Source: Phycisphaerae bacterium
Lineage (GTDB): Bacteria; Planctomycetota; Phycisphaerae; UBA1845
Direction of reading: 5' to 3'
DNA length: 64,000 bases
Assembly (NCBI GenBank): GCA_022072505.1
Contig: JAJVHU010000010.1
Coordinates: 174,170-238,169 of the forward strand
Part shown: positions 4,652 through 48,612 of the stretch, piece after piece
How positions within the stretch are numbered: position 1 is the first letter of the stretch
How the letters are laid out: each line of letters begins with the position of its first letter
Translations under genes and position numbers: made by a program
Notes under the pieces: model-generated
The model's database searches: none
What the model was told of the DNA's origin: nothing
The model's input: only the letters and a program-made list of their open reading frames with translations

Positions 4652-5506
4652 TTGAAAGACCATCCTGAACAATCCTCAAGCACGGATTACCCGGTTGTGG
4701 CGGGGGGACGCTTCGCCCCCGCGCTTCGGATCACCCGGGGTGAGGGGCTGGGACGCCGCATCCCCTGTCGACGGATCGTGACGCTGGTCGGATCCAGACC
4801 CGGGTGCAAGGTCAATCTTCAGCACCCTGCCGTGGCGCCCGTCCACCTGGCGTTGGTGCATACCGGATCGCGCTGGTTGGCGTGCGACCTGGCGACGCTG
4901 CGCGGGACGCGGCATAACGATCTTCCGCTGCGCGTCGATGAAATGCTCGACGGGAGCGTGCTGGCGCTGGGGCCTTGGGAGTTCCGCGTCGAGATCGCAC
5001 CAACGGACCCGGAGGCGCCCGGAGCAGGGATCGACCTGGATGCCTCGCCGGGGGATCCGACGCTGGAGCACCTCGGCACGCGGCGCTTGTTTCAGCCGGC
5101 GCGCGACGTGTGCCTGATCGGTCGGCGGTCGGGCTGCGACATCGCAATTGAGGACGAGGAGGTGTCCCGCGTTCACGCGATTCTCTTCAAGCATCACGAT
5201 CGCGCCGTCATCGCCGACGTGCTCGCGTCCGTTCCGCTGCGCATCAACGGCGAACCCCGGCGGTTCGCGCACCTTCACCAGGATGACGTGATCGAGGTCG
5301 GGCGCACGCAGTTCAGAGTCCGGTTCCCGCGCGGCGTTCATGCCGCGACGCCCGGCGGAAACGGGGTCGCCGAGCCTCCCGCAACGCCGGAGGCGACGGC
5401 GAAAGAAACCGACCTCGTTGACATCCGGACCGCGGAGGGCAAACATTGGCCGGTGGCGGATCGGCTCGAACGCCTCCGAAAGAACTCGATGCCTTCCGGG
5501 TCATGA
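4652..5506 (+). CDS. Protein with two FHA domains
   Basis: Two FHA-like blocks: VTLVGSRPGCKVNLQHPAVAPVHLALVH...GTRHND...LGPWEFRV and CLIGRRSGCDIAIEDEEVSRVHAILFKH...LRINGE...VIEVGRTQFRVRF. The ORF is open from 4397, but the first ~85 codons look non-coding. A TTG at 4652 is one plausible start. Confidence 0.7.
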   Translation: MKDHPEQSSSTDYPVVAGGRFAPALRITRGEGLGRRIPCRRIVTLVGSRPGCKVNLQHPAVAPVHLALVHTGSRWLACDLATLRGTRHNDLPLRVDEMLDGSVLALGPWEFRVEIAPTDPEAPGAGIDLDASPGDPTLEHLGTRRLFQPARDVCLIGRRSGCDIAIEDEEVSRVHAILFKHHDRAVIADVLASVPLRINGEPRRFAHLHQDDVIEVGRTQFRVRFPRGVHAATPGGNGVAEPPATPEATAKETDLVDIRTAEGKHWPVADRLERLRKNSMPSGS

Positions 5507-5551
5507 GAAGGAGGCGGCGATGTCGCCTTCGTTGCAGGGCGCGCAAGCGAG

Positions 5552-6355
5552 GTGCAGGGAACCTTGACGACGAACCCGGTCAACCTGACAGATGCGGAAC
5601 AGGGCACGCGGCGGCCGTCGAAGGCGTACCTGATCGGGCCCTTGCTGGCGCTTTTATCGATCCCGGCTTATCTGGTCTGGCTGGACGTTTCGCTGCTTCG
5701 GTCGACCGCGTTGCAATCTTTCGCGCTGATGATCGCGGGGACCGTCGTCGGGCTGATGACGCTGAAGACAGACCGTCGCCGACGGGTGAAGGCTGCGGCG
5801 ATCGGCACGGGCGGGTTCCTCCTGCTCGGCACGGGGATGTTCTTTTTCGCCACGAAGCTCCCCCAGCCTGCCGGCGCGCCGGAGGTCGGGGCGCGTGTCC
5901 CGGGATTTACGCTGCCGGATCAGACCGGTCAACCGGTCAGCCTGGCGTCTCTCTACCAACGCGGGGCGACGTTGCTGGTGTTCTATCGCGGGCACTGGTG
6001 AATCACCTGTCTTTCGGAGCTCCGCGGGCTCGGAGACGTTCATCGCAAGCTGGAGGCGCAAAGCGGTCAGGTGATCGCGGTGTCCGTCGACGCGCCGTCG
6101 GTATCGCTCGACGTCGTCGAGCGCCTCGCCCTGCCCTTCGACATTCTCTGCGACGTGGATGCGGCCGTGGTCCGACAGTTCGGGTTGCTGCACACGGGCG
6201 GGAATCCCCACGGCGGCGACACCACCGTCCCGGCAATGTTTCTGATCGGGAGCGAAGGCAAAGTGCTCTGGCGCCGCGTCGCGCAGCGGATTCAGGATCG
6301 CCCGGACCCGCGTGAGATTCTTGACGCGATCGAGCGTCTTGCCGCCGCCCCCTAA
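5552..6355 (+). CDS. Membrane-anchored AhpC/TSA (redoxin-fold) peroxiredoxin-like protein; in-frame TGA at 5999-6001 read as selenocysteine (U-x-x-C)
   Basis: ORFs 5552-6001 and 6071-6355 share one frame and only the TGA separates them. Read-through gives LLVFYRGHW-U-ITCLSELRGL...VIAVSVD...LPFDILCD...PAMFLIGSEGKVLW, a complete thioredoxin-fold peroxiredoxin. The N-terminus has hydrophobic helices. Confidence 0.65.
6012..6036 (+). promoter_or_regulatory. Candidate bacterial SECIS hairpin
   Basis: UUUCGGAGC / loop UCCGCGG / GCUCGGAGA. Eight pairs with one G-G mismatch. Starts 10 nt after the UGA. The G-containing apical loop lies about 22 nt from the UGA. Confidence 0.4.
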
Positions 6356-40963: not shown

Positions 40964-41563
40964 ATGTCCGATCCACGCCGTCAACGTGCGTACGTGACTC
41001 GCGCCGGCGAGAAGCTCGCGACCGCCTTGCGCGCGTTTTCGCTGAATCCGGCGGGGCGGGTGTGCGCCGACCTGGGCAGCCACGAGGGGGGATTCGTGGA
41101 CTGCCTGCTGAAGCACGGGGCGGCGCGGGTTTACAGCGTGGACACCTCCTACGGCACGCTGGCGTGGGCGCTGCGGCGGGATCCGCGCGTCGTCGTCCTT
41201 GAGCGCACGAACGCGATGCATGTATCCTTGCCTGAGCGGATCGACCTGACGACGATCGACGTGGGCTGGACGCGGCTGGGGCTGGTCCTGCCGAATGTCG
41301 CGCGCTGGCTGAAACCCGGCGGGCGGGTCGTCGCGCTGGTGAAACCGCATTACGAGGCGGATCCGAGTCAATTACGCGGCGGCGTTCTCGACGAGCAGGC
41401 CGTCGAGTCGATCGTGGGCACGGTCCTGCATGCGGCGACGGAAGCGGGCTGGGACGTTCGTGGTTGCGTGGACAGTCCGCTGGTGGGTCACGGGGGCAAC
41501 CGGGAGGTGCTGGCGATGCTGGCGAGGTCGGGTGATCCGAACCCGTCACTGAATGCGTACTGA
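40964..41563 (+). CDS. TlyA/FtsJ-like SAM-dependent RNA methyltransferase lacking the S4 domain
   Basis: YVTRAGEKLATALRAFSLNPAGRVCADLGSHEGGFVDCLLKHGAARVYSVDTSYGTLAWALRRDPRVVVLERTNAMH matches the TlyA methyltransferase core. Confidence 0.7.
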   Translation: MSDPRRQRAYVTRAGEKLATALRAFSLNPAGRVCADLGSHEGGFVDCLLKHGAARVYSVDTSYGTLAWALRRDPRVVVLERTNAMHVSLPERIDLTTIDVGWTRLGLVLPNVARWLKPGGRVVALVKPHYEADPSQLRGGVLDEQAVESIVGTVLHAATEAGWDVRGCVDSPLVGHGGNREVLAMLARSGDPNPSLNAY

Positions 41564-41760
41564 AAGGAGAGAGTTACCCTCGAAAACAAGGCCTCGGTAT
41601 GATGATGATTCGGCGGTAGAACAAAGCCGCTGTTGCGCATTCTGCGGGTCATAGCGACAAAAGCCGCTTCCTGACCCTTGACATTGCTTCACGACGTCAA
41701 GGGCAGGCGGGGCGGCTCGGTTCCGCAGGAACACAGGAGTCGTTAATCGGAGAAAACCGC

Positions 41761-42207
41761 ATGTCTTACTCGGTGAAGCAGATTGAAGTGTGGGCGGGGG
41801 ACATCATGAACCGGCCTGGGGCGTTGGCGCGGGTGGTCGAGGGGCTCAGCGCGGCGGGGGCGGACCTGGAATTCATGGTGGCGCGGCGGGTGTCGGAGAA
41901 CACCAGCCGGGTGTTTCTCTCGCCGATCAAGGGCAAGAAGGTGAAGCAGGCGGCGACGGACGCCGGGCTGATGCCGGCGGCGAACATGCACACGGTGCGG
42001 ATCGAAGGTCCGGACAAGGCGGGGGTGGGCGCGGCGATCACCCGGGCGGTGGCGGCCGCAGGGGTGAACCTGCGCGGGGCGACGGCGGCGGTCATCGGGA
42101 AGAAGATGGTCGTGAACCTCGGCGTCGGCTCGGCGGAAGACGCGAAGAACGCGATCACCGCGGCGAAGCAGGCCTTGAAGAAAGGCAGCAAGAAGCGGTC
42201 GAAGTGA
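41761..42207 (+). CDS. ACT-domain (amino-acid-binding) protein
   Basis: Two ACT-like beta-alpha-beta-beta-alpha-beta blocks: VWAGDIMNRPGALARVVEGLSAAGADLEF and VRIEGPDKAGVGAAITRAVAAAGVNLRG. Confidence 0.6.
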   Translation: MSYSVKQIEVWAGDIMNRPGALARVVEGLSAAGADLEFMVARRVSENTSRVFLSPIKGKKVKQAATDAGLMPAANMHTVRIEGPDKAGVGAAITRAVAAAGVNLRGATAAVIGKKMVVNLGVGSAEDAKNAITAAKQALKKGSKKRSK

Positions 42208-42556
42208 CCCGCGATCCGGATTCCGGAATGACGGCGGAATTGTCCGGCACGTCGCGTCGCCGGTCGCCTTTGCGAAACTTGCGGACGGCTGACGCGTGGC
42301 TCGCAGACCGGATCCACCCGACGCGCCGCCCTCTTCGTCCACCTTTGTCTGATGGTGCTCCCCTTCCGACGCCCCGGCCAATGCCCCCGCCGCTGCGCCG
42401 GGAAGGATTTCAATAAAGTTCCGCTCGGGAACCGATCCCATCGTCGGACGTATCATGAAGTAACAGGTTGCCGACACCTGCACGCTGCTTCGGAGGATCT
42501 ACCACCAGGCGACGGTGCATCCTGAACGGGCATCAAGGGCGATCGGAGTGTTGCAC

Positions 42557-43114
42557 ATGCAACGAGACATGAACGTTCTCAGCAACCTTCGCGTCGCATC
42601 GCCGTGCCCGGCATCCTGGGCAAACATGACCGGCGATGACCGCAGCCGCTTCTGCGGCCAGTGCAACCTTCACGTTTACAATCTCTCCGACATGACCCGC
42701 GACGAGGCCGAAAGCCTCCTCCGCCAGCGCGAAGGCCGACTCTGCGTGCGGTACTACCAGCGCGCCGACGGCACGATCCTCACGCGGGACTGCCCGGTCG
42801 GGCTTCGCACGGTTCGGCAGCGCCTGGTGAATACCCTCGCCGGCGTCGCCGCCGCCCTCGGCCTCTTCATATCGGCCCTGACCGCTCTCGGCCGTGGGCG
42901 GCCGAAGCTCAGCAACTCCGACCTCGCCGAGCTTCAGCCGTTCAAGGCCATCCGCGACAAGCTCACGCCCGCGGTAACGACCGTGGCGCCGCCGACCCCG
43001 ACAAACTGGGACGGCGCCGTCCTGATGGGTCGGTTGGCTGCGCCGCCGACTCCGTTTCCCTTTGAACCGACTGGGGAGGGCGTGGAAGGCGACCCGGAAC
43101 CACGGCGGGAGTAA
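42557..43114 (+). CDS. Cys-rich (zinc-ribbon-like) single-pass membrane protein, paralogue A
   Basis: ASPCPASWANMTGDDRSRFCGQCNLHVYNLSDMTRDEAESLL...LCVRYYQRADGTILTRDCPVG, then TM helix LAGVAAALGLFISALTAL, then a Pro/Thr/Ala tail. Confidence 0.7.
   Translation: MQRDMNVLSNLRVASPCPASWANMTGDDRSRFCGQCNLHVYNLSDMTRDEAESLLRQREGRLCVRYYQRADGTILTRDCPVGLRTVRQRLVNTLAGVAAALGLFISALTALGRGRPKLSNSDLAELQPFKAIRDKLTPAVTTVAPPTPTNWDGAVLMGRLAAPPTPFPFEPTGEGVEGDPEPRRE
42641..42798 (+). repeat. 158-bp tract, copy 1, 100% identical to 43269-43426
   Basis: Base-by-base comparison of the two paralogues. Flanks differ at many positions. Confidence 0.9.
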
Positions 43115-43184
43115 CGCCTCGGATCCCAGGCAATACGCCCAAGATTTCCGCGTTTCCCTCGTGACAATGTCGTAGGAGCGATTC

Positions 43185-43805
43185 ATGCCGAAGAACCTCA
43201 GCCTGCTCGACCGCGTCCGTGTCGCCTCGCCCTGTCCGGCGTCCTGGGAAAATATGACCGGCGACGATCGCAGCCGCTTCTGCGGCCAGTGCAACCTTCA
43301 CGTTTACAATCTCTCCGACATGACCCGCGACGAGGCCGAAAGCCTCCTCCGCCAGCGCGAAGGCCGACTCTGCGTGCGGTACTACCAGCGCGCCGACGGC
43401 ACGATCCTCACGCGGGACTGCCCGGTGGGCCTGCGGGCGGTTCGCATCCGGCTCGTCAAGACCCTGGGCGCCGTCGCCGCGGTCGTGGGACTGCTTTTTT
43501 CGGCACTGACCGCCCTCGGTCGCGGGCGCGACACGACGTCCTCGGCGCGCCTTTCACGACTGCAGCCGTTCAGCGCCATCCGGGCGAAGCTCGCGCCGAC
43601 GGTTGCGACATTTGCGCCGCGCAATCCGCCGGCTATCATGGGTTCATTGGTTGGTTACGTCGACTCGGCAGCGCTGGACGAGATCGACGTGCTGAAAGCG
43701 CCGGATTCCCAGAAGTCGCACAACGTTGCGCCCGACCCGCCCCGCCGCCCGACCCGCCTCTGGCAAGACAAGTCGCGCCAAAAGGAACGGAGAAACGCCC
43801 GATGA
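43185..43805 (+). CDS. Cys-rich (zinc-ribbon-like) single-pass membrane protein, paralogue B
   Basis: Same N-terminal domain as paralogue A, then TM helix LGAVAAVVGLLFSALTAL. The tail is diverged. Confidence 0.7.
   Translation: MPKNLSLLDRVRVASPCPASWENMTGDDRSRFCGQCNLHVYNLSDMTRDEAESLLRQREGRLCVRYYQRADGTILTRDCPVGLRAVRIRLVKTLGAVAAVVGLLFSALTALGRGRDTTSSARLSRLQPFSAIRAKLAPTVATFAPRNPPAIMGSLVGYVDSAALDEIDVLKAPDSQKSHNVAPDPPRRPTRLWQDKSRQKERRNAR
43269..43426 (+). repeat. 158-bp tract, copy 2, 100% identical to 42641-42798
   Basis: Base-by-base comparison of the two paralogues. Confidence 0.9.
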
Positions 43806-44290
43806 TCCGCCTCGCCCTGGGACAGTTGTGCGTCTTCGTAACCGTCGTAGCGGTCAACGTCGGCATCTCGATCGAGCGAGGCCGGGGCGTCGGCGGGCGC
43901 GCCCTCGACGACCTCTTTACAATCGCCATCCTTCCCGTCGCCGCCGGCGTCATCGTGGCGGCGCTCGTCGACCACGTTCGGCCCCTCCGCATCCTGAGCC
44001 GCAGAGCGCCGGTCGGGGCAAGGCCGTTTCTCGTCGGCGTGTTCGCGTCTGTGATCACGATTCTGGTCGCCGGCGCTTACATCATGGTCGCGGATATCGC
44101 CGTGCCCGACGCCGCATTGCTGTGCGGCGTTCAGTCGCTGAGCCTCCTGATCATCCTGCTGACGGCGCGCCGCGTCTGGGCCGGGCGGTGCATTCGTTGC
44201 GACTACGATATCCGCGGGTCTCTGGACTCGGGACGCTGCCCCGAATGCGGGGCGGCGATTTCGTCGCTTCGGCGTTCCGCGGTCTACTGA
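43802..44290 (+). CDS. Multi-pass membrane protein with a C-terminal CxxC...CPECG zinc ribbon
   Basis: Four hydrophobic helices, then GRCIRCDYDIRGSLDSGRCPECGAAI. ATGA start/stop overlap with paralogue B. Confidence 0.6.
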   Translation: MIRLALGQLCVFVTVVAVNVGISIERGRGVGGRALDDLFTIAILPVAAGVIVAALVDHVRPLRILSRRAPVGARPFLVGVFASVITILVAGAYIMVADIAVPDAALLCGVQSLSLLIILLTARRVWAGRCIRCDYDIRGSLDSGRCPECGAAISSLRRSAVY

Positions 44291-45177
44291 AACCGCTCAA
44301 GCAACTGCTTACACGCTTTCACGCCGGCAAGTTCATCCGTCGGACCTTCGTACTCGATGCCGACGTAACCGCGGTATCCGGCGTCGAGGACGATCTTCAT
44401 CATCCGGGCGAAGTCGATCGTTGTCTCGTCGCCGGCGTCGTTGAAGGCGTAGCACTTGGCGCTGACCGCCTTGGCCGCGGGCATCAGCTTGCGGATCGAC
44501 TCGTATTTGTCAGCCTCCTTCGGGAAGTTGCCGAAGTCGGGCAGCGTGCCGAAGTTGGGCTTGCCGACCGCGGCGACGACCCTCATCAGCGAACCCGCGT
44601 CGGACGAGAGCCCGCCGTGGTTCTCGATGATGACGTTGAGTTTGTCGGCGGCGGCGAGGTCCGCCAGTTCGGCGAAGCTCTCGGCCCCGCGACGGATCGC
44701 CTCCGCGTCGCCGGGCGCGGCGTTCCCGAAGTTGCAGCGGATCGAGTGACAACCGAGCAGGGCCGCGGCGTCCAGCCACTTCCGGTGATTGCGGACCGCC
44801 TGTTTGCGCACCGCCGGGTCCGCGTGGCCCATGTCGCCCTCGGAGTCGCACATGATGAGGAGAATCTTCACCCCGTGATCGGCGGCGCGTTTGCGCAGAT
44901 CATTGCAGTAGTCGAACGTCGGGGCGGGGAAGAAGTTGTTGACGAGTTCAAGGCCGTCCAGTTCGAATTCCTCGCGCGTCAGCTTCGGCAGGTCGATCTG
45001 CTTGAGCTTGCCGTCAAAAAAAAGGCGATGCACGGACCACGCCGCCAGTGAGATCGAGAATTTCCTCGAGGCGCCGGACTCCTGCGCCGCGGACTCGGCC
45101 GTCAGCGCTCCGCCGACCGCCGCGACCCCCGCCAGACCCGCCGTATCCCGCAGAAACTGTCGTCGCGTCGTGTTCAT
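44284..45177 (-). CDS. Xylose-isomerase-like TIM-barrel sugar phosphate isomerase/epimerase with Tat signal
   Basis: Tat motif TRRQFLRDTAGLAGVAAV. Motifs HSIRCNFG and NVIIENHGG. Confidence 0.8.
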   Translation of the reverse strand: MNTTRRQFLRDTAGLAGVAAVGGALTAESAAQESGASRKFSISLAAWSVHRLFFDGKLKQIDLPKLTREEFELDGLELVNNFFPAPTFDYCNDLRKRAADHGVKILLIMCDSEGDMGHADPAVRKQAVRNHRKWLDAAALLGCHSIRCNFGNAAPGDAEAIRRGAESFAELADLAAADKLNVIIENHGGLSSDAGSLMRVVAAVGKPNFGTLPDFGNFPKEADKYESIRKLMPAAKAVSAKCYAFNDAGDETTIDFARMMKIVLDAGYRGYVGIEYEGPTDELAGVKACKQLLERFQ

Positions 45178-45233: not shown

Positions 45234-45596
45234 TCAGATCAAATCGACAATTCGAACCCGTATCCGACCGGGTTCCACGGTGATAATGGCGCGGTCCGCC
45301 AGGTCATCGGCAAACCGCTGAATCACCTCGATGATGGCCGGCGCCTGCGAGGTCGCGGCGACATCGACAAGCCGGATGATTCCGCAATGCTGTCGCCCGT
45401 GATGGATTGCAAGCAGGCCGAAGTCCTTGTCAAGCGTGATCAGGACGCGCTGCTGCTCTGCGGCGACGCGCAGGATTTCCTCGTCTCCCGGATCCTTTGG
45501 CCAGTCGCCAACCCACTCGACATCGAATCCGGCTTCCCTCAGCGGCTCCTTCGCCTTCCCCCAGACACAGGTGTCAAGGAGAAGTTTCGTCTTCAC
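45234..45596 (-). CDS. DUF5615 (PIN-like/Mut7-C-like) toxin candidate
   Basis: VKTKLLLDTCV...PLREAGFDVEWV...DEEILRVAAEQQRVLITLDKDFGLLA...CGIIRLV. GTGA overlap with the upstream DUF433 gene. Confidence 0.7.
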   Translation of the reverse strand: MKTKLLLDTCVWGKAKEPLREAGFDVEWVGDWPKDPGDEEILRVAAEQQRVLITLDKDFGLLAIHHGRQHCGIIRLVDVAATSQAPAIIEVIQRFADDLADRAIITVEPGRIRVRIVDLI

Positions 45597-45856
45597 GCCT
45601 TGTCTCCGTTCGGGGCAGAGATCGGCGCGTCGAGCCGCTCCTGGGCGACCAGGCGGCGCGCGTACAAGATGCAGGCGCGAACGTCTTCCGGCTCCAGCCA
45701 CGGATATCCCGACAGAATGACCTCCGGCGTGTCGCCCGCCGCCAGCATCCCCAGGACATGCTCCACGGCCAGGCGACGCCCGCGGATGATGGCCTTTCCG
45801 CCGAAGATGGCTGGATTGAATGTGATGCGCGACAGCATTTCGGTTTCGGTCGCCAC
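45593..45856 (-). CDS. DUF433 antitoxin candidate
   Basis: FGGKAIIRGRRLAVEHVLGMLAAGDTPEVILSGYPWLEPEDVRACILYA. Confidence 0.75.
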   Translation of the reverse strand: MATETEMLSRITFNPAIFGGKAIIRGRRLAVEHVLGMLAAGDTPEVILSGYPWLEPEDVRACILYARRLVAQERLDAPISAPNGDKA

Positions 45857-47164: not shown

Positions 47165-47336
47165 GTCACGTGTGTCATCGCGGGTGGACGCCGATGCTCG
47201 TCCTCACGGACGCAGGCGCCCCTGAGGGCGGATTATAACGGCGGGGCGACAACCGTCAGCGGTCGGCGACGGCGGGTTGGGGTCGGGGGCGGAGGCGCCT
47301 ATAATCCGGCGGCGGGAGCGTGCTTCCGACGCAGCG

Positions 47337-47537
47337 ATGTTCATCAGGATTAACGGCAAAGAAGAAGCGATTCCGCCGGACTTGACCGTTGCGGACCTGA
47401 TCGCGGCCCGCGGCTTGGCGCCGGTGCGCGTCGCCGTCGAGATCAATGAGAATCTTGTTCCTCGCCGCGATTACGGCGCGGTCCGGCTTGCGGAGGGCGA
47501 CGTGGTGGAGATCGTGACGTTCGTCGGGGGCGGGTGA
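47337..47537 (+). CDS. thiS: Sulfur-carrier protein ThiS
   Basis: 66 aa, MFIRINGKEEAIPPDLTVADLI...VAVEINENLVPR...DVVEIVTFVGGG, ending in the C-terminal Gly-Gly. Confidence 0.88.
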   Translation: MFIRINGKEEAIPPDLTVADLIAARGLAPVRVAVEINENLVPRRDYGAVRLAEGDVVEIVTFVGGG

Positions 47538-47775
47538 GGGGAACATGAGGAATTTAGGAATGCAGAATTCAGAATGAAGGATGCGAAATGCGGAACGATC
47601 AAGGAGGCGACGCGGTCGAAGGTCGTTACGACGCGGATTCCCACAACCGAGTCGCGCCCGTAAGGAAGCGTTCCTTATTGGTGCCGCTCTGAAAATCATG
47701 ATCCCGTGTCCGGGACATGCGGCAACCTGGTGCGGCATCCCGCCCAAGACGGAGCAGGAAAGGATTTGATCGACT

Positions 47776-48612
47776 TTGAACGCCACGTCCGTGCAGCCTG
47801 ACGCCTACCGCATCGCGGGGTTCACGTTCCGCTCGCGCCTTTTCGTGGGCACGGGCAAATACGCGAACTTCGACCTCATGCGCGCGGCGATCGACGCCTC
47901 CGGCTGCGAGGTCGTCACCGTCGCCGTCCGCCGAGACGTGCTCGCCGACGACGGCGCCCCGCGCGCGGACAGCATCCTCGATCATCTCGACGGGCGGCGG
48001 ATCACGATCCTGCCGAACACCGCCGGATGCTTCAACGTCAAAGACGCGGTGCGCTCCGCCCGGCTGAGCCGCGACCTGCTCGAGGGGATGAACAATCCCG
48101 GCGCGGCGTGGGTCAAACTGGAAGTGCTCGCGGATACGAAGACGCTTCTGCCCGACCCGATCGGCACCCTGGAAGCCACGAAGACGCTCGTCGGCGAGGG
48201 GCTGAAGGTGCTCGCGTACACGACGGACGATCCGATCATCGCCGCGCGTCTCAAGGAGGCCGGCGCCGCCAGCGTCATGCCCCTCGGCGCCCCGATCGGC
48301 AGCGGGCTGGGGATTCTCAACCCGAACAACATCCGTCTCTGCCTCGAATACCTCAAGACGGGCGACGCGGAATACCCGGTCATTGTGGACGCGGGCGTCG
48401 GCACGGCGAGCGACGTGACGGTCGCGATGGAGCTGGGCGCGGACGGCGTCCTGCTGAACACGGGGATCGCCGGCGCGAAAGACCCGGTGAGGATGGCGCG
48501 GGCGATGGCGCTGGCGTGCGAGTCGGGACGCTTCGCGTCTCTCGCGGGCCGCATCCCGAAAAAGGCCTACGCGACGGCGTCTTCGCCCTGGGAAGGCGTG
48601 ATCGGCCGGTAG
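47776..48612 (+). CDS. thiG: Thiazole synthase ThiG
   Basis: [14 protein letters not shown]..., [34 protein letters not shown]. Confidence 0.92.

Follow-up and report, generated by a model that had tools for sequence, protein, structure and literature searches.

Which of the genes that lie in a row at positions 41761-44290 of a 64,000-nucleotide stretch of Phycisphaerae DNA (hereafter the window) belong together, and what could the small membrane proteins that they encode be doing? A preliminary description of the locus had placed four same-strand genes in one array: a gene for an ACT-domain protein, two paralogous genes for membrane proteins with a Cys-rich domain, and a gene for a protein with four transmembrane (TM) helices ending in C-x2-C-x12-C-P-E-C-G, whose start codon overlaps the preceding stop in an ATGA. 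The list of open reading frames (ORFs) and the sequence returned the same four genes on the + strand, called here ACT, CYS-A, CYS-B and ZR, and the row, the overlap and the four-helix protein were confirmed from the ORFs, the sequence, hydropathy and AlphaFold2 models. The array itself turned out to be shorter. We show that 42557-44290 is a three-gene operon made of CYS-A, CYS-B and ZR, and that it is one case of a gene set conserved in the Phycisphaerae, consisting of one to three tandem CYS genes and one ZR gene.

When one genome per GTDB species was scanned for CYS genes, at least 595 species-level genomes matched, of which 80 loci were retrieved (loci carry L numbers below, and database proteins P numbers). 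The set of one to three CYS genes plus ZR was recovered in at least 17 further Phycisphaerae-type loci with unrelated flanks. CYS followed by a homologous ZR was found in the window and in L001, L002, L004, L006-L010, L012, L026, L028, L062, L076 and L084 and, coming from the ZR side, in L091-L093. In a Phycisphaeraceae genome (L001) and on a metagenome contig (L002), two CYS genes stand in tandem ahead of the gene for a multi-TM protein ending in CxxCGYD[LV]R...RCPECG; L006 has two CYS genes and one ZR with overlapping stops and starts, and L007 and L008 have one of each. According to a motif scan of all loci, ZR lies directly 3' of CYS in eight of the nine loci labelled Phycisphaerae, Phycisphaerales or Phycisphaeraceae. 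A variant order was seen in the ninth (L031) and in L011, labelled 'Planctomycetota', where a zinc-ribbon protein with three TM helices is encoded directly upstream of CYS; this upstream protein (L011:3-584, L031:2192-2767) has an N-proximal CPxCxYNLRG...CPECG ribbon, followed by the three helices.

The downstream ZR proteins of 15 loci formed one homologous family in an all-against-all clustering of the neighbouring ORFs of 89 loci, and no other neighbour family was common to different lineages. In 8 of the 14 loci measured, the start of ZR and the stop of CYS overlap by 4 or 1 nt. In a reverse check, ZR relatives were found by sequence alone and their loci were then looked up, and all seven (L001, L006, L007, L008, L091, L092 and L093) have one or two CYS genes immediately upstream. 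The genes flanking CYS and ZR, including the upstream neighbour, differ in every locus. The arrangement is not due to chance, because it recurs in many independent genomes. As to what the preliminary description had wanted checked, the neighbourhood comparison found CYS and ZR kept together across Phycisphaerae-type loci; the Polyangiaceae loci had no ZR partner. CYS and ZR are syntenic in relatives, their co-translation is very probable, and they belong to no well-characterised family.

Within the window, CYS-A (42557-43114, + strand) encodes a bitopic membrane protein of 185 aa. The mechanical ORF opens at GTG 42515; we prefer ATG 42557, which is most likely the start because the resulting protein equals database protein P0002 and because 16 residues then precede the first Cys, as in CYS-B. 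The latter (43185-43805, + strand) encodes a bitopic membrane protein of 206 aa, and ZR (43802-44290, + strand) a protein of 162 aa with four TM helices and a putative C-terminal zinc ribbon. The two CYS genes are separated by 70 nt, and the distance between CYS-B and ZR is -4 nt, such that the stop of the one and the start of the other share the ATGA at 43802-43805 (+ strand), an overlap read from the sequence that suggests translational coupling. A GGAG-type ribosome-binding site, also read from the sequence, is found 6-9 nt 5' of each gene. The 349-nt spacer between ACT and CYS-A (42208-42556, without strand assignment) is presumed to be the promoter region of the operon. Neither a sigma-70 consensus site nor a terminator-like site appeared in this spacer in the promoter and terminator scan, which gave nothing above expectation, and the three terminator-like sites in the scanned region are all inside the coding sequences of CYS-B and ZR. 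A search of 41400-44500 against Rfam gave no match in the spacer, and a match to rne-II inside CYS-A was dismissed as sub-threshold (E=0.19, 16 bits vs a cutoff of 50).

The gene upstream of the spacer (41761-42207, + strand) encodes a true ACT protein of 148 aa with two ACT-like halves; it matched Pfam ACT (PF01842) with 46.6 bits over a cutoff of 27 (E=2.7e-12) and ACT_6 with E=2.6e-5. We rejected it as a member of the unit, contrary to the array first proposed, because tblastn found no homologue of it in 88 related loci (best E=1.5) and because the upstream neighbour is different everywhere. It is an unrelated neighbour outside the conserved unit.

The most conserved part of the CYS proteins is their N-terminal domain, encoded at 42569-42814 (+ strand) in CYS-A, as placed from domain alignments and a motif match at 42605, and at 43197-43442 (+ strand) in CYS-B, in both covering residues 5-86. 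Six Cys residues had been counted in it originally; there are five, C17, C33, C36, C63 and C79 in CYS-B numbering, with the spacing C-x15-C-x2-C-x26-C-x15-C, that is, one CxxC knuckle and three single Cys over ~65 aa. Each of the five is invariant across 81 aligned homologues, as are W21, M24, G26, R31, V40, D71, G72 and G82, and the mean column identity was 66% over 40 diverse N-terminal domains. CYS-B has at least 2,679 homologous proteins at E<=1e-3, of which all the named ones are 'hypothetical'. The profile of the N-terminal domain, searched against 1.84 billion representatives, matched 15,439 clusters at 50% identity with E<=1e-3, and 7,798 with E<=1e-10; in most of the 150 best representatives the domain is N-terminal and occupies residues ~6-85. 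Its carriers belong to the Planctomycetota, Acidobacteriota, Polyangiaceae/Myxococcota, Elusimicrobiota, Armatimonadota, Vampirovibrionales and others.

No significant match to either Cys domain, that of the CYS proteins or that of ZR, was obtained in Pfam, NCBIfam, PADLOC or PHROGs, where ACT was the only one of the four window proteins to match, and Pfam had no match over the five-Cys region in 32 long homologues. A search of PDB with the single CYS-B sequence gave no match, and the best Foldseek match of the CYS-B model in PDB had E=2.7. The profile of the N-terminal domain matched half of the zinc domain of UTY/KDM6A in PDB with E=0.05, which is marginal and was treated as chance. The initial statement that the Cys domains could be assigned to no named family has thus stood up to searches with hidden Markov models (HMMs), sequences and predicted folds, which left the N-terminal domain unnamed and gave weak zinc-ribbon matches for the CPECG motif of ZR. 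On present evidence, the five-Cys domain is an unnamed domain without a solved relative.

The AlphaFold2 model of CYS-B has a mean predicted local distance difference test (pLDDT) score of 77.8, rising above 90 for residues 20-70. In it, C17 is in an N-terminal loop and a beta-hairpin (30-33/38-42) holds the C33-x2-C36 knuckle; then come a helix (48-57), a strand (63-65) containing C63, a second hairpin (67-75) around D71-G72, and finally C79, two residues before the long helix 82-112. Given the CxxC knuckle on a hairpin, the domain would bind one metal ion, most likely Zn.

In CYS-A, hydropathy identified one TM helix at residues 90-108 (42824-42880, + strand; window value 2.03). In CYS-B there is one hydrophobic stretch, covered by two overlapping windows over residues 86-114, and the model helix 82-112 (43428-43520, + strand) comprises the juxtamembrane and TM segments. 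All the Pfam matches in the 32 long homologues are C-terminal to the TM helix and all are of extracytoplasmic types: CarboxypepD_reg in 12, CarbopepD_reg_2 in 11, TonB_C in 3, PEGA in 3 and SAF/ChapFlgA in 1, in addition to Big and SpaA-like domains. In P0163, for instance, the order is five-Cys domain, TM helix, Pro-rich spacer and TonB_C. The Cys domain is accordingly predicted to be cytoplasmic and the tail periplasmic, because there is no signal peptide, because of the positive-inside rule, and because the homologues carry periplasmic domains after the TM helix. These fused domains also support the topology first described, namely a small cytoplasmic metal domain, one TM helix and an external tail.

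That tail had been called variable; it does seem to be external, but it is not simply variable, as it holds two conserved short motifs, both located by motif counts. The first, of the QPF type, reads QPFKAIRDK in CYS-A (42935-42961, + strand) and QPFSAIRAK in CYS-B (43563-43589, + strand), and the second, hMGxh, reads LMGRL (43022-43036, + strand) and IMGSL (43635-43649, + strand), respectively. Motifs of the type QPF..h..W are present in 32% of the tails vs 3.5% after shuffling, and hMGxh in 48% vs 2.6%, so that the tail motifs are enriched ~10- to 20-fold over shuffled tails. In the periplasmic tails of the CYS family that carry it, hMGxh(xxP) is found one to four times (e.g., P0221, P0253 and P0188), with 2-4 copies in some of them.

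The partner encoded downstream is of a different kind. Hydropathy predicts four TM segments in ZR, and AlphaFold2 places helices at residues 2-25, 33-59, 74-96 and 103-122, in a four-helix bundle with a pLDDT of 84 and a predicted template-modelling score (pTM) of 0.72, followed by a less confident C-terminal beta knot. The C-terminus has the pattern C-IR-C-x12-C-PE-C-G (CIRCDYDIRGSLDSGRCPECG), which by its motif is a putative C4 zinc ribbon, CxxC-x12-CPECG, at 44189-44251 (+ strand, ZR residues 130-150); in the model it consists of isolated beta bridges at a pLDDT of ~71. The family is small and fast-evolving, with 5 matches for the single sequence and 23 for the profile, and the named matches among its closest relatives are from Phycisphaerae. 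Invariant in 15 of its members are P45 in TM2, G79 in TM3, and C130, C133, Y135, D136, C146, P147, E148, C149 and G150 in the ribbon region; TM2 is followed by an RP[RL]R motif that hardly varies. The ZR model had no match in PDB with E<1 (Foldseek). The ZR profile gave a weak match in PDB to 6YDH, a C(P)XCG zinc ribbon of DUF1610 (E=1.5e-3), and another to Rpo12 (E=0.13), and further weak or sub-threshold matches of the ribbon were Pfam DUF7837 (E=0.044) and an NCBIfam rubrerythrin-like model (E=0.0055). Designed C2H2 fingers were matched by the profile solely through their repeated 'CPECGKSFS' knuckle, and not by homology. The literature search on 'CPECG' returned only papers on zinc-finger nucleases and Chlamydia pecorum.

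Positive charges follow TM2 and TM4 of ZR, which suggests that both termini are inside the cell and that the ribbon is cytoplasmic. No conserved polar, charged or catalytic residue was found in the membrane part of the 15 family members, where only P45 and G79 are invariant, and since ZR has no conserved catalytic motif an enzymatic role is unlikely. We also considered ZR as an intramembrane protease and rejected it: its TM helices have no HExxH/DG, GxSG or GxGD motif, and the NCBIfam daptide metalloprotease model matched only with E=0.17. The same CxxC.Y.L...CPECG ribbon is found at other chain positions in unrelated membrane proteins (L004:4693-5925, - strand; L084:9323-9907), and it appears to be a mobile module in membrane proteins of Planctomycetota. 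In L004:6500-7000, and in the same way in L005, ZR is split over two frames, with the TM part in one and a CRICQYDL...CPECG ribbon in the other, so that the gene is either a pseudogene with a frameshift or wrongly assembled.

The two CYS copies of the window are 74% identical over 152 aa (E=3e-82). Within their genes, a block of 158 bp at 42641-42798 (+ strand) in CYS-A is 100% identical to 43269-43426 (+ strand) in CYS-B, as defined by the longest exact match and by difference counts per 30 nt. The block covers codons 29-80, and its flanks are 75-85% identical, with 8 synonymous differences in codons 12-28 and ~20 in codons 81-115. That 158 bp are identical while the flanking conserved codons carry many synonymous differences indicates recent gene conversion between CYS-A and CYS-B. 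In tandem CYS copies elsewhere, exact runs are only 10-39 bp long. The tandem copies are usually each other's closest relatives (window, L001, L002, L009, L026, L076 and L084), which suggests repeated homogenisation or repeated duplication.

CYS genes in other lineages have other surroundings. Tandem copies without ZR were seen in Pyrinomonadaceae (3 copies), Polyangiaceae (3 and 2) and Elusimicrobia (2). In Pyrinomonadaceae and other Acidobacteriota (L013-L088), CYS falls into at least five synteny classes, and single metagenome-assembled genomes have two loci, either on the same contig or within the same assembly (e.g., L043 and L071); in one Acidobacteriota class, a CYS gene with a ~180-aa tail is followed within 2-13 nt by a gene for a secreted protein of ~365 aa without Pfam match. 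The neighbours of CYS outside the Phycisphaerae show lineage-specific synteny only and include, by Pfam, a VWA protein, an ATE-like transferase and a DUF7918-like protein. Others, judged by eye only, resemble NAD synthase, photolyase and GNAT, and none of them recurs across lineages.

Around the operon in the window, the genes scanned over ~36.7-48.6 kb encode GH38, PRAI, a DUF900-like hydrolase, an FtsJ methyltransferase, a xylose-isomerase-like TIM barrel, DUF5615/DUF433, deoxyhypusine synthase, ThiS and ThiG. None of these is a sigma factor, a kinase or a DNA-binding protein, and the earlier remark that none is adjacent holds over this range; the loci with Pfam annotation likewise showed no linked gene of these three kinds. 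The xylose-isomerase-like TIM-barrel gene (44284-45177, - strand) is convergent with ZR, and its 3' end overlaps the ZR stop by 7 nt (44284-44290); there is no terminator-like site between the two. Beyond it, at 45234-45856 on the - strand, overlapping genes for DUF433 (87 aa) and DUF5615/Mut7-C-like (155 aa) proteins resemble a toxin-antitoxin pair. The thiS-thiG genes (47277-48612) are 3 kb downstream of the operon, and in L001 thiG (4959-5807) is directly upstream of the CYS genes; this shared proximity may be residual synteny and fits the Phycisphaerae origin of the window.

What could such a set do? We tentatively favour the possibility, drawn by analogy, that CYS and ZR act across the membrane as an adaptor or relay, in the form of a complex of zinc-finger adaptors that sits in the inner membrane and has a layout like that of ZitP and GltJ. 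The 'signalling module' of the preliminary description is taken here as a hypothesis for these genes. CYS and ZR would be made in fixed proportion through translational coupling and would join by way of their TM helices in a single complex of the inner membrane, with both metal modules on the cytoplasmic face and the CYS tails in the periplasm. The five-Cys domain would dock a common, conserved cytoplasmic partner, because it is extremely conserved across phyla and paralogues while the periplasmic parts interchange, and the outer part would give the specificity. The motifs of the periplasmic tail would contact a component of the envelope; other phyla carry CarboxypepD_reg, TonB_C, PEGA or SAF in that position. 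The complex would be neither an enzyme nor a classical anti-sigma factor.

Several known systems share parts of this layout. ZitP of Caulobacter crescentus is a bitopic zinc-finger polarity protein whose finger recruits PopZ (PMC5182063, PMC5182065). Its layout is the one predicted for CYS, with a small zinc finger at the N-terminus in the cytoplasm, then one TM helix, and a C-terminal part in the periplasm; the periplasmic part of ZitP carries a DUF3426 domain. However, the zinc finger of ZitP is of another type and family, and ZitP has no four-TM partner gene. In GltJ, from the Agl-Glt gliding machinery of Myxococcus xanthus, a bitopic protein whose periplasmic domain is TonB-C-like, the zinc ribbon serves in the cytoplasm as a protein-protein switch, and the authors remark that zinc-ribbon proteins of this kind are often encoded beside genes for transmembrane partners (PMC11135422). 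The ribbon of GltJ is a classical C4 module of 42 aa (C5, C8, C28 and C31), with a linker and a GYF domain behind it (PMC11135422). GltJ and CYS are both bitopic inner-membrane proteins whose N-terminal domain, on the cytoplasmic side, binds Zn in GltJ and would do so in CYS, and a periplasmic domain of TonB_C type is found in some CYS homologues too, whereas the CYS domain has ~80 aa, five Cys, a different spacing and no GYF domain, the window proteins have no TonB_C, and the MglA/MglB/AglZ context is missing. The ~40-aa ribbon that is typical of ZitP and GltJ, with two CxxC knuckles on two beta-hairpins as in PDB entry 7Z0K, was not found in CYS, and 7Z0K was neither among the Foldseek matches listed nor among those of the HMM searches of PDB. 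On the side of ZR, the C-terminus has the two-knuckle CxxC...CPxCG signature of the C(P)XCG micro-proteins (6YDH, RNA polymerase subunit P/Rpo12), but these are soluble, while the putative ribbon of ZR forms the end of a membrane protein with four helices and matches no Pfam model at threshold.

Two further groups are similar in outline. The ZAS or zf-HC2 anti-sigma factors (RsrA, ChrR and RslA) have an N-terminal cytoplasmic Cys metal site, often one TM helix, a variable external domain and multiple paralogues; their helical domain, their HxxxCxxC motif and the adjoining gene for an extracytoplasmic function (ECF) sigma factor are all absent from CYS. TonB is anchored by one N-terminal TM segment and has a Pro-rich spacer in the periplasm, and a minority of the CYS family ends in TonB_C; unlike CYS, TonB has few cytoplasmic residues and no Cys domain, and the window proteins have neither TonB_C nor linked exbBD. 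CYS and ZR are not members of the ZAS anti-sigma, TonB or ZitP/GltJ zinc-ribbon families, since the features that define these families were looked for and are absent, and the resemblance is one of architecture only.

The favoured adaptor reading has to be weighed against a number of observations that speak against it. The five invariant Cys are one more than a Zn site needs. The CYS domain is not a relative of the ZitP/GltJ zinc ribbon in sequence or fold, the likeness being architectural. Physical contact between CYS and ZR and metal binding are predictions, and a signalling output is a hypothesis. No gene for a conserved cytoplasmic partner is linked to CYS in any lineage. Finally, the motif scan found no ZR partner in any locus of Acidobacteriota, Pirellulales, Polyangiaceae, Elusimicrobiota, Chthonomonadales or Vampirovibrionales; as CYS occurs without ZR outside the Phycisphaerae, ZR would be an accessory and not a universal partner.

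Other explanations draw on the same data. The preliminary description saw a resemblance to anti-sigma factors or membrane-tethered regulators. On such a reading, the cytoplasmic Cys domain would sequester a transcription factor, or bind DNA itself, and let go once the external tail senses a signal, possibly after proteolysis. The topology fits, since anti-sigma factors and ToxR-like regulators likewise combine a small domain in the cytoplasm with one TM helix and an external domain that varies, and some genomes have many paralogues with different external domains, with at least five synteny classes in Pyrinomonadaceae. The resemblance ends with the topology: CYS-A and CYS-B have no HxxxCxxC, the predicted fold is made of beta-hairpins and one short helix rather than being helical, the zf-HC2 and RskA models gave no Pfam match at E<=1, and no Sigma70 Pfam domain is present in the window or in 9 annotated loci, nor is there, in the 89 loci, any cross-lineage recurrent neighbour besides ZR. 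Moreover, a domain specific for a sigma factor or a DNA site would be expected to vary between paralogues, and the five-Cys domain is ~66% identical across phyla. We regard this explanation as improbable. The additional Cys would be accounted for if the domain were a redox or metal sensor, with the five Cys holding an Fe-S cluster or acting as a thiol switch, and in this way signalling oxidative or metal stress from the surface of the membrane; one invariant Cys exceeds the need of structural Zn, a Pro follows both C17 and C79, and C79 is two residues from the TM helix. The Cys spacing, however, matches no Fe-S motif recognised by the HMM libraries, no redox genes are linked, and a CxxC knuckle on a beta-hairpin is what Zn sites typically have, so this sensor is also given a low probability.

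Less probable still is that the CYS proteins are minimal TonB paralogues working as transducers on a motor of the ExbBD/TolQR type, with the Pro-rich tail reaching outer-membrane partners and ZR as a lineage-specific accessory. A true TonB_C follows a Pro-rich spacer in 3 of the 32 long homologues (e.g., P0163), the tail of CYS-A is Pro-rich, and CarboxypepD_reg, the domain most often fused to the five-Cys domain, is also found on TonB-dependent receptors. Yet TonB_C (PF03544) is absent from CYS-A and CYS-B, ZR has no conserved charged TM residue, and exbB/exbD (or tolQ/tolR) do not adjoin CYS in the window, beside the TonB_C-fused homologue of L089 or in the annotated loci, with a distant MotA/OmpA pair in L006 as the single exception; the TonB_C-fused homologues checked for linkage to exbBD were on short contigs or were monocistronic genes. 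A structural or biogenesis factor of the envelope, a scaffold for shape, division or outer-membrane tethering whose Cys domain anchors it to a cytoskeletal or ribosomal component without any signalling, seems unlikely. It would agree with the limitation of the family to phyla that are diderm and have a complex envelope (Planctomycetota, Acidobacteriota, Myxococcota, Elusimicrobiota, Armatimonadota and Vampirovibrionales) and with genes that are highly conserved, multi-copy and without a linked regulator; nothing specific points to it, though, and it overlaps with the adaptor that we favour, from which it differs only in output. That the row might be a chance adjacency of unrelated small genes, or of spurious ORFs, is suggested by the DNA of the window, which has 66% GC and many spurious long ORFs. 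This is hardly credible and is refuted by thousands of homologues with invariant residues, by an order kept in at least 17 loci with start/stop overlaps, and by confident models.

The adaptor reading could be extended to the whole family, although we consider the extension doubtful: the five-Cys domain would define a large unnamed class of bitopic trans-envelope adaptors or signalling proteins, in which a new metal-binding fold docks a universal cytoplasmic partner and the periplasmic heads (TonB_C, CarboxypepD_reg, PEGA or bare hMGxh) are interchangeable, and which in Phycisphaerae is in obligate complex with the four-helix ZR. The finding as it stands is an uncharacterised conserved gene set and not a surprising mechanism. 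The five-Cys domain is nevertheless among the more abundant bacterial domains without a family model or a studied member, and its carriers belong mostly to phyla of soil and water on which little genetic work has been done. The CYS-ZR operon of the Phycisphaerae, with its three small proteins and translational coupling, is a compact entry point to it. Defining the domain would annotate thousands of 'hypothetical proteins' and could reveal how these diderm bacteria link TonB_C, CarboxypepD_reg and similar modules of the envelope to the cytoplasm.

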